From: Dictyostelium discoideum
Lineage: Eukaryota
Direction: 5' to 3'
Assembly (NCBI GenBank): GCA_000004695.1
Contig: CM000155.2
Coordinates: forward strand, 576,001-640,000
DNA: 64,000 bases
This document shows, piece after piece, positions 43,891 through 45,819 of the stretch (position 1 is its first letter; every line of letters starts with the position of its first letter). A program made the position numbers and the translations under genes. Below the pieces are notes generated by a model that was not told the origin of the DNA, ran no database searches, and saw only the letters and a program-made list of their open reading frames with translations.

Positions 43891-43896
<6 letters not shown>

Positions 43897-44662
43897 GTCA
43901 ACCTTATGTTCACCTGGGCCACCCTCTAATAATGTATCTTGTTGTGAGATTAGTCTTAGTACTGTCTTTTTACTTGTTTCTTGTAATTCACCAGCCATAA
44001 TTAATTCATCTAAAATATAATATGCCTTGTGAAAATTAAAAATTAGATCTAATTCACAAACCTAAATTGAATTAATGTAAATTTTATTATTATCATTATT
44101 ATTATTATTATTATTATTATTGAATATTTGAGTATTTGAGTATTTGTGGTGTGTATATATTTATACGTAAAAGTTAGTAATCTATAATATAAAAAAGGTA
44201 AAGATAGATAGAGAGAGAATAAAATTATAATTATAAAAATTTACATTTCCAAAGTATCTATCTAAAATTTCTACAAAATGATGAATAATTTCTAAAACGA
44301 TAAGTTCATTATCTTCTCTATCACAACAAACTACAAAATATAAACTTGCATATCTTTTGAAAATGATTTTATATTCTTTCCATTCTAAAAAATTACATAA
44401 TTTGGGTGGTCTATTTAGAACCATATTACCAATTTCTCTTGTAAATCTTGATTTTTCTTTATTTGTGAATGGTGAATACCATTTTGTTAATCTTGTTTTA
44501 CCTTGTCTAGATAATAATAATAAAAAGTGAAATGTCTAAAGAAAAAAAAAAAAAAAATAATAAAAAAATAATAAAATATATACATATATTAATATTTTTA
44601 TTTATTTTGATTATTTTGAATGTGGAGTATATATATATATCAAATATTTTATCCATTACCAT
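43891..44662 (-). CDS. ap1s1: AP-1 clathrin-adaptor sigma subunit; 3 exons: 44660..44662 (ATG only), 44245..44535, 43891..44061
   Basis: The spliced product [98 protein letters not shown]|[42 protein letters not shown]... aligns along its whole length with sigma-1 adaptins ([43 protein letters not shown]...). Donors GTAATG and GTAAAT, acceptors CTTTAG and TTTAG. Confidence 0.75.
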
Positions 44663-44774: not shown

Positions 44775-44806
<32 letters not shown>

Positions 44807-44918
44807 AATTGACCACCTAACAACCACAACATATTTTCATTTTTTTTATTTTTATTTTAATTTTTTATTTTTAATTTTTATCTTTATATTTCTGATTTGA
44901 TTTATATTATTAATAAAA
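44663..44918. promoter_or_regulatory. ~256-bp divergent (bidirectional) promoter region shared by the AP-1 sigma (minus) and UFM1 (plus) genes
   Basis: Two start codons face away from each other across an AT-rich spacer. Inference from gene layout only. Confidence 0.35.
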
Positions 44919-45509
44919 ATGTTGGTGAATAATATTTTTCAAGATTTATAAAATGTAGTAGATTATTAATTTTTTGCTTTTAAAAATAGGTCCAAAGTCA
45001 CTTTTAAAATCACTTTAACATCAGATCCAAAATTACCATTTAGAGTGTAAATTATTATTATCATTATTATTAATAATATTATTAATATTAATATTAATAT
45101 ACTAATCTTTTTTTTTTTTTTAGAATTAATGTTACAGAAGATACACCATTTACAGCAGTTTTAAGATTTGCATGTGAACAAGTAAGAATAAAGAATTTTT
45201 TAAGATTTTCTTTTTTTTTTTTTTTTCAAGGTTATACTAATTTTTTATTACTATCATATAGTTTAATGTCCCATGGCAAACATCAGCAATTATTACAAAT
45301 GATGGTATTGGAATTAACCCAGCACAAACAAGTGGTAATATATTCCTTAAAAATGGTTCAGATTTAAGAGTAAATATAAACTTCACCCTTTTTATTTATA
45401 TTTTTTTTTTATATTAATAATAACTAATTTTTATTTTATCTTTATTATTATTTTTTTTTTTAAAAAAAAAAAAAAGTTAATTCCAAGAGATAGAGTTGGT
45501 GGTTTATAA
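44919..45509 (+). CDS. ufm1: ubiquitin-fold modifier 1 (UFM1), 5 exons; start codon split by the first intron (AT|G)
   Basis: Exons 44919..44920 (alternatively 44953..44954), 44990..45046, 45124..45181, 45262..45369 and 45477..45509 give [85 protein letters not shown]. This is near-identical in length and sequence to human UFM1 ([83 protein letters not shown]). Internal donors are GTAAAT/GTAAGA. The first donor is either GTTGGT (69-nt intron) or GTAGTA (35-nt intron). Confidence 0.8.
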
Positions 45510-45819
45510 ATAATAAAAAAATATAAAATAAAAAAATAAAATAAAAAAATCTGTAAAAAGTAAATTTAAATAATAAAGAAAAGAAAAGAAAAGAAAAGAA
45601 AAGAAAATAGTTATTTTAATCTCATCATGATTTTAAAAGATAACCATTATTTGGTTGTTAATAATTTAAAAATATTAAATAATTATTAAAATTCAAATTC
45701 CAATTTAATTATTAAAAAAATATTAATAATAATAATAATATACTAAAAAAATAATAATAAAGAAAAATGTTGATAAATATTTATTTTTTAAATTTTTATT
45801 ATTATTTATTATAATTATT

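Follow-up and report, generated by a model that had tools for sequence, protein, structure and literature searches.

The start codon of the Dictyostelium discoideum UFM1 gene is probably assembled by splicing, at an intron position shared with other eukaryotes

We analysed a 64,000-nt stretch of Dictyostelium discoideum DNA (hereafter the window; G+C ~22% over its entire length) and found that the initiator codon of its UFM1 (ubiquitin-fold modifier 1) gene is most probably interrupted by a 69-nt intron, with AT at the end of exon 1 and G at the beginning of exon 2. Taking together the split ATG, the use of the distal of two candidate donors and an ancestral origin of the intron, we assign this explanation a probability of roughly 85%, judged from sequence comparisons. 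The intron is most simply regarded as inherited, since its position is common to the UFM1 genes of several eukaryotic supergroups. In what follows, a slash within a nucleotide string marks a splice junction.

Results

Identity and structure of the gene

Judged by its encoded product, the gene at 44919-45509 on the forward strand is UFM1, as the preliminary description of this DNA had proposed. The product matches Pfam family PF03671 at full length (E=1.7e-42, 143.6 bits with a cut-off of 27, profile positions 1-75 of 75), and solved UFM1 chains in the PDB match at about 1e-41 (3e-41); an identity of ~80% to these structures allows a beta-grasp fold to be safely predicted. The C-terminus is RDRVG-GL, compared to RDRVG-SC in human UFM1, i.e., the RDRVG expected of UFM1 followed by a short tail, whose removal by processing is predicted. 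Tracing frame-preserving GT...AG introns downstream of 44990, we obtained a gene of five exons (44919-44920, 44990-45046, 45124-45181, 45262-45369 and 45477-45509), with a CDS of 258 nt and a product of 85 aa.

The spliced product is 100% identical (85/85) to P0001, the NCBI protein 'ubiquitin-like Ufm1 family protein [Dictyostelium discoideum AX4]', and the public AX4 ufm1 model (85 aa, MSKV start) is therefore indistinguishable from the window product at the protein level. The same protein is also encoded at a second locus (L001; GCA_036169595.1, CM069765.1), the DNA of which carries synonymous and intronic differences; the species is probably D. firmibasis (hereafter the sister species), and its UFM1, like that of D. 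discoideum, has 85 aa and starts with MSKV. The D. firmibasis annotation was produced with MAKER from genome-guided Trinity transcript assemblies and the D. discoideum proteome (PMC11193728). The L001 gene model is not fully independent, because it may be partly guided by the D. discoideum protein.

The features of the region are the following (percent identities refer to L001):

43891..44662, reverse strand: clathrin-adaptor sigma subunit gene (154 aa), divergent from UFM1 and restricting the room for UFM1 exon 1
44804..44821, forward strand: conserved intergenic motif TCAAATTGACCACCTAAC, identical to L001 at 18/18 positions, occurring once in the window
44888..44920, forward strand: putative exon 1, an A/T-rich short 5' UTR plus AT, 86% identity
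44919..44920, forward strand: AT, bases 1-2 of the initiator codon, at the favoured distal donor AAAAT/GTTGGT; homologous to the L001 CDS start AT/GTTTGT
44921..44989, forward strand: intron 1, 69 nt, phase 2, GT...AG, 83% A+T, predicted to split the start codon; position conserved
44953..44954, forward strand: alternative proximal AT, AAAAT/GTAGTA, with a 35-nt intron (44955-44989); judged unlikely to be used
44965..44970, forward strand: ATTAAT, resembling a branch site; the A at 44969 is the candidate branch point, and the 3' splice site is 20 nt away
44990..45046, forward strand: exon 2, the G of ATG, coding sequence and bases 1-2 of the Val20 codon
45047..45123, forward strand: intron 2, 77 nt, GTAAAT...TAG, phase 2
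45124..45181, forward strand: exon 3, coding
45182..45261, forward strand: intron 3, 80 nt, GTAAGA...TAG, phase 0
45262..45369, forward strand: exon 4, coding
45370..45476, forward strand: intron 4, 107 nt, GTAAAT...AAG, phase 0
45477..45509, forward strand: exon 5, ending in TAA; the full CDS product is P0001

It should be noted that 44888, which follows a T-rich stretch, is the position where conservation begins rather than a mapped transcription start. The position of intron 2 is common to animal-like metagenome contigs (..PYKV followed by GTAAG) and to Pythium.

Requirement for a start codon upstream of exon 2

Exon 2 had been described as opening with a G at 44990, after which TCC AAA GTC (S K V) is read, and this is correct. 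Directly before that G stands ttttaaaaatAG, with the acceptor AG at 44988-44989. Both donors that had been put forward were likewise located: AT at 44919-44920, which is followed by GT at 44921-44922 and gives a 69-nt intron, and AT at 44953-44954, which gives a 35-nt intron. Joining AT (44919-44920) to G (44990) yields an 85-aa protein that starts with MSKV and ends with RDRVGGL. The properties expected of a split start codon are thus present, i.e., an exon end AT followed by GT, an acceptor AAATAG/G TCC AAA, and an in-frame ATG created by joining.

In unspliced form, the frame 5' of exon 2 reads ...TAA TTT TTT GCT TTT AAA AAT AGG TCC, with the TAA located seven codons upstream, and no ATG in the exon 2 frame occurs between this TAA and Ser2. 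The 85-aa product contains no Met elsewhere; therefore, initiation must be upstream of 44990. Contiguous ATGTCCAAAGTC is absent from the whole window. Without splicing, the ATG at 44919 opens only a 10-residue peptide, and the ATG at 44953 directly precedes TAG.

We enumerated, upstream of the acceptor, every ATG from which an open frame leads to a phase-2 GT donor. Only four solutions produce MSKV (ATG at 44919, 44953, 44532 and 44620), and apart from the 44919 and 44953 sites, the qualifying sites are all at or below 44627. The AT/GT sites at 44532 and 44620, which would give introns of 456 and 368 nt, were discarded, as they fall inside the first intron and exon 2 of the divergent neighbour; ATG 44469 and ATG 44532 as starts of a longer N-terminus were discarded as well, since these positions are inside the neighbour gene. 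Given that only 256 nt separate the divergent start codons, the donors at 44919 and 44953 are the sole candidates. Together with the missing internal Met and in-frame ATG, this enumeration bears out the earlier claim that only an upstream AT spliced onto G44990 can supply the initiator ATG.

These results also bear on the possibility that UFM1 starts elsewhere, either in an upstream coding exon that adds a longer N-terminus or, on unspliced RNA, at a codon other than AUG. Longer N-termini are found in other species: Acytostelium apparently has ATG...GC/GTAGGC...TAG/A TCA, with six extra residues (MSTAAAASKV), and several public UFM1 models carry N-terminal extensions. However, the exhaustive enumeration from 44662 to the acceptor shows no ATG with an open frame and a phase-2 donor besides the two AT/GT sites, the acceptor before G and SKV is conserved across eukaryotes, and the public proteins of D. 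discoideum and the sister species have 85 aa and start with MSKV. The sole near-cognate codon between the upstream TAA and Ser2 is AGG, which is among the least efficient near-cognate initiation codons. We consider a start elsewhere to be extremely improbable, the most so of all alternatives weighed here.

The occurrence of ATGT alone is statistically unremarkable: between the start codon of the neighbour and the acceptor (327 nt), two were seen compared to 1.63 expected by shuffling, P(>=2)=0.49. Support for the split ATG comes, instead of from the ATGT count, from the need for a start codon, the identity of the product to the public protein and the conservation of the site. Given the window DNA, P0001 can be produced only by joining AT and G, and the split ATG is consequently implicit in the public model; the split start codon of D. 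discoideum UFM1 is already annotated, and it is neither overlooked nor novel for this genome. Our search of the literature found no mention of a split start codon in UFM1.

Choice between the two donors

Conditional on a split start codon, the comparison with the sister species and the geometry of the intron make the distal donor (AT/GTTGGT, 69 nt) strongly favoured over the proximal one. We infer its use, the transcription start and the branch point from the DNA. The annotated CDS start of L001, AT/GTTTGTGAA, aligns with window positions 44919-44928 (TAATAAAAATGTTGGTG in the window compared to TAATAAAAATGTTTGTG in L001), and the start-codon intron of L001 has 104 nt and ends in TTTATAG/G TCA AAG. 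The proximal TAAAATGTAGTA aligns to TTAAATTATATT of L001, which contains neither ATG nor GT; the proximal ATGT aligns to TTAAATTATAT, likewise free of ATG and GT, and with 5/11 positions identical and no ATGT the proximal site lacks a counterpart in L001. The identity between the window and L001 is 86% in the putative exon 1 (44888-44920) and 89.5% in coding exon 2, compared to 53% in the T-rich stretch directly 5' of 44888; after the distal donor, it is 56% in the first 20 intron nucleotides and 38% in the remainder. Such a fall in identity after 44920 is what an exon 1 ending at this position would produce, which favours the distal donor.

The position of the putative branch site points in the same direction. 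The distance to the sole branch-like motif, ATTAAT, is 48 nt for the distal donor and 14 nt for the proximal one. This motif is one mismatch away from ACTAAT, which in D. discoideum is the most frequent branch hexamer (PMC2483917) and is found in the other three UFM1 introns at 18-49 nt from their 3' ends.

Splicing from the proximal donor (44954/44955, 35-nt intron) would result in the same protein and differ in the 5' UTR only. This site has AT followed by GT, carries A at +3 and gives an identical MSKV product, and there is one possible precedent for such a short intron: in a metagenome contig (Ga0210044_10194421, L009 358-391) of an A/T-rich eukaryote (27% G+C), the UFM1 start codon is apparently split by a 33-nt intron, AT/GTAAGA...TTTGAAG/G. 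Conversely, the proximal site is not conserved in the sister species, its distance to the sole branch-like motif is just 14 nt, and it lacks G at +5. Its 35-nt intron would be far shorter than the D. discoideum median of 103 nt (introns of this species have 89% A+T; PMC2483917) and shorter than all of the other five introns verified here in UFM1 and its neighbour (77-183 nt). We found no statement of a minimum Dictyostelium intron length in the literature, and that 35 nt is too short is what we infer. In addition, if transcription starts 5' of 44919, proximal splicing would leave in the mRNA a 10-codon uORF that ends 1 nt before the real AUG; the distal donor leaves an mRNA free of upstream ORFs. 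Use of the proximal donor is accordingly rated as improbable.

Each of the two sites could formally act as a GT donor, and neither fits the consensus strongly, so the two could serve as alternative 5' splice sites that produce one CDS with two leaders, one of them containing the uORF. This reading inherits the objections to the proximal site, which again is the one that is not conserved, and we regard it as somewhat less probable still than exclusive use of the proximal donor.

The favoured distal donor is itself weak in both the window and the sister species (GTTNGT form): GTTGGT is non-consensus, with T at +3 and U at -1, and the L001 form is GTTTGT. Beside the GTAA(A/G)N donors of the other introns, GTTGGT is atypical. 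Crude U1 duplex energies, for which the canonical 5' end of U1 was assumed, gave no convincing separation of the two donors, and since the registers are unreliable, they carry no weight in the choice made here. Compared to U2-type GT-AG introns of Dictyostelium, intron 1 has the GT and AG ends and a high A+T content (83%), along with a variant branch hexamer (ATTAAT) and a length (69 nt) below the 103-nt median. A U12-type intron was rejected: it needs a (A/G)TATCCTT donor and a TCCTTAAC branch site, whereas intron 1 has the donor GTTGGTGA and its sequence (44921-44989) is devoid of TCCTTAAC.

Conservation of the split position

An annotated CDS that opens with a lone AT is found in the UFM1 genes of the butterfly Bicyclus anynana (L058), the green alga Monoraphidium minutum (L057) and the pigeon Columba livia (L059). 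As in L001, the intron in these three genes has the same position and phase as that in the window, and the acceptor is directly before G and a Ser codon. The Columba livia gene reads AT/GTAAGT...CAG/G, which contradicts an intact exon-1 ATG for vertebrate UFM1. A Met codon split as AT/GT...AG/G before SKV or SGKV is also present in the mussel Dreissena polymorpha, the sea anemone Exaiptasia diaphana, Branchiostoma (amphioxus) and the oomycete Pythium oligandrum (L060). Thus, the position of the start-codon intron is common to Amoebozoa, Metazoa, Chlorophyta and Stramenopiles. In the orthologues whose annotated CDS opens with a lone AT, the donors are mostly strong (AT/GTAAGT, AT/GTGCGT), in contrast to the weak GTTNGT of D. 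discoideum and the sister species, and the start-codon introns, that of L001 included, have 75-104 nt compared to 69 nt in the window.

We further scanned metagenome contigs for AG followed by G and SKV[T/S]FKIT, which produced 48 contigs with 27-62% G+C. In all of them (48/48), a pyrimidine tract and AG are located exactly before the G, and in at least 12 of 37 distinct contexts, a donor of the AT/GT(A/G)AGT type is found 80-200 nt upstream. By a rough estimate, the full ATGTRAGT octamer is expected by chance at well under 1% per locus. The AX4 spliced junction itself (ATGTCCAAAGTCAC...) had 0 matches in the contigs scanned.

In D. purpureum (L002 2001-2427, GL871107.1), ATGTCAAAAGTT is contiguous and the start-codon intron is absent; intron 4 is also absent, and introns 2 and 3 are kept. 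The start-codon intron and the last intron are lost in D. purpureum UFM1. In Acytostelium subglobosum (L003 1912-2000, DF837576.1), an intron is found at the same position, ATG AGC ACA GCA GCA GCA GC/GTAGGC..(68 nt)..TTCTAG/A TCA AAG; the codon at the intron is GC/A and the start codon is intact, and the public model is partial, starting with SKV. In Cavenderia fasciculata (L004 2001-2325, GL883006.1), the acceptor is ATCATAG/G TCA at 2325, and two candidate donors, AT/GTAATG (2180) and AT/GTAAAG (2185), are 138-143 nt 5' of it and would give MSTTTTSTSTAKVTFK. In the public Cavenderia UFM1 model (120 aa), two additional exons make up an N-terminus that is implausible, and the model is probably mis-annotated.

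The models of Dreissena, Exaiptasia, Branchiostoma and Pythium (L053-L056, L060) contain 21-59 extra N-terminal residues that read through the split Met codon and begin at an upstream in-frame ATG of exon 1. These extensions are likely to be 5'-UTR sequence translated under a longest-ORF rule. The expectation that such a start codon is easy for gene predictors to miss is in part borne out, by the partial model of Acytostelium and the odd N-termini of Cavenderia, Exaiptasia, Dreissena, Branchiostoma and Pythium. The public protein of D. discoideum has the MSKV start. The further claim that MSKV is universally conserved did not hold: it is common, yet MAASKV, MTSKV, MSGKV and MAAKV are also found among UFM1 proteins. 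As a separate observation, Dreissena polymorpha CM035918.1 contains two identical 113-aa UFM1 models (L053 and L054), ~40 kb apart and in opposite orientation; both copies adjoin an ankyrin/SOCS-box gene, suggesting a recent inverted segmental duplication.

From this distribution, we consider it fairly probable that the AT/G intron of UFM1 is a single ancestral intron, dating from about the last eukaryotic common ancestor and retained at the same nucleotide. Shared ancestry is more economical than repeated gain, because the exonic ..AT/GT.. is unlike the usual AG/G insertion (proto-splice) site. If ancestral, this intron would be among the oldest cases of a start codon that exists only after splicing.

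Discussion

The proposed sequence of events is as follows. Transcription would begin a few tens of bases 5' of 44919, within the 256-nt divergent space, and exon 1 would be a short A/T-rich cap-proximal leader that ends in ...AAUAAAAAU, i.e., in AU. The spliceosome would excise the 69-nt GT-AG intron (44921-44989), probably via the ATTAAT located 20 nt from the acceptor, and AU would be joined to G44990, creating AUG in the A-rich context AAAAAUGUCC. The AUG of UFM1 would then be present only in the spliced mRNA, from which alone UFM1 could be encoded, and its translation is predicted to give the 85 aa ending in RDRVGGL; on unspliced RNA, the AUG at the same position would yield a decapeptide only. 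The intron itself would have been inherited, kept in D. discoideum and the sister species and lost in D. purpureum. Perhaps the start-codon intron has been maintained because a cap-proximal intron benefits the expression of a small gene.

Introns in phase 1 or 2 of codon 1, by which the start codon is disrupted, form a class that is recognised but 'relatively rare' (Nielsen & Wernersson 2006, PMC1626468). In human VAMP1, the coding bases of exon 1 are AT only, and this exon was missed by the annotation tool TOGA1 (TOGA2 preprint, 10.64898/2026.06.30.735536). Like VAMP1, UFM1 has an ATG assembled by splicing and a two-base first coding exon; UFM1, and the conservation of such an intron across supergroups, do not appear in these two papers. 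A separate class is that of the 'start codon introns', which are in phase 0 directly after the ATG (Nielsen & Wernersson 2006, PMC1626468). These resemble intron 1 of UFM1 in being 5'-most, with hardly any coding sequence in exon 1. The difference is that their ATG is intact in exon 1, whereas in UFM1 the codon itself is broken, and as a result the unspliced RNA is without the correct start codon context and frame.

Two-base first coding exons tend to be missed or papered over by annotation pipelines, as several public UFM1 models show. An interruption at the same nucleotide from Dictyostelium to birds, algae and oomycetes could be relevant to intron evolution and to the function of 5'-proximal introns. 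Because the split is conserved, any start-loss or splice-donor variant of UFM1 exon 1 should be interpreted as acting on splicing and initiation alike.

The divergent neighbour is an example of the 'start codon introns' class: the ATG of the adaptor-sigma gene (44662-44660) directly abuts a 124-nt phase-0 intron, ATG/GTAATG...CTTTAG/ACA, and exon 2 runs from 44535. The L001 counterpart (Pfam Clat_adaptor_s) has the CDS start ATG/GTAAAG. UFM1 and adaptor-sigma thus form a head-to-head pair in which each exon 1 closes with the start codon of its gene, the two start codons being separated by 256 nt. Between them, a 29-nt poly(A) run (44775-44803) directly precedes TCAAATTGACCACCTAAC, the A/T-rich surroundings of which are 53-78% identical to L001; the motif may be a promoter element shared by the divergent genes. 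On the other side of UFM1, a short (GAAAA)n microsatellite is located at 45578-45607 of the window, ~70 nt 3' of the stop codon.
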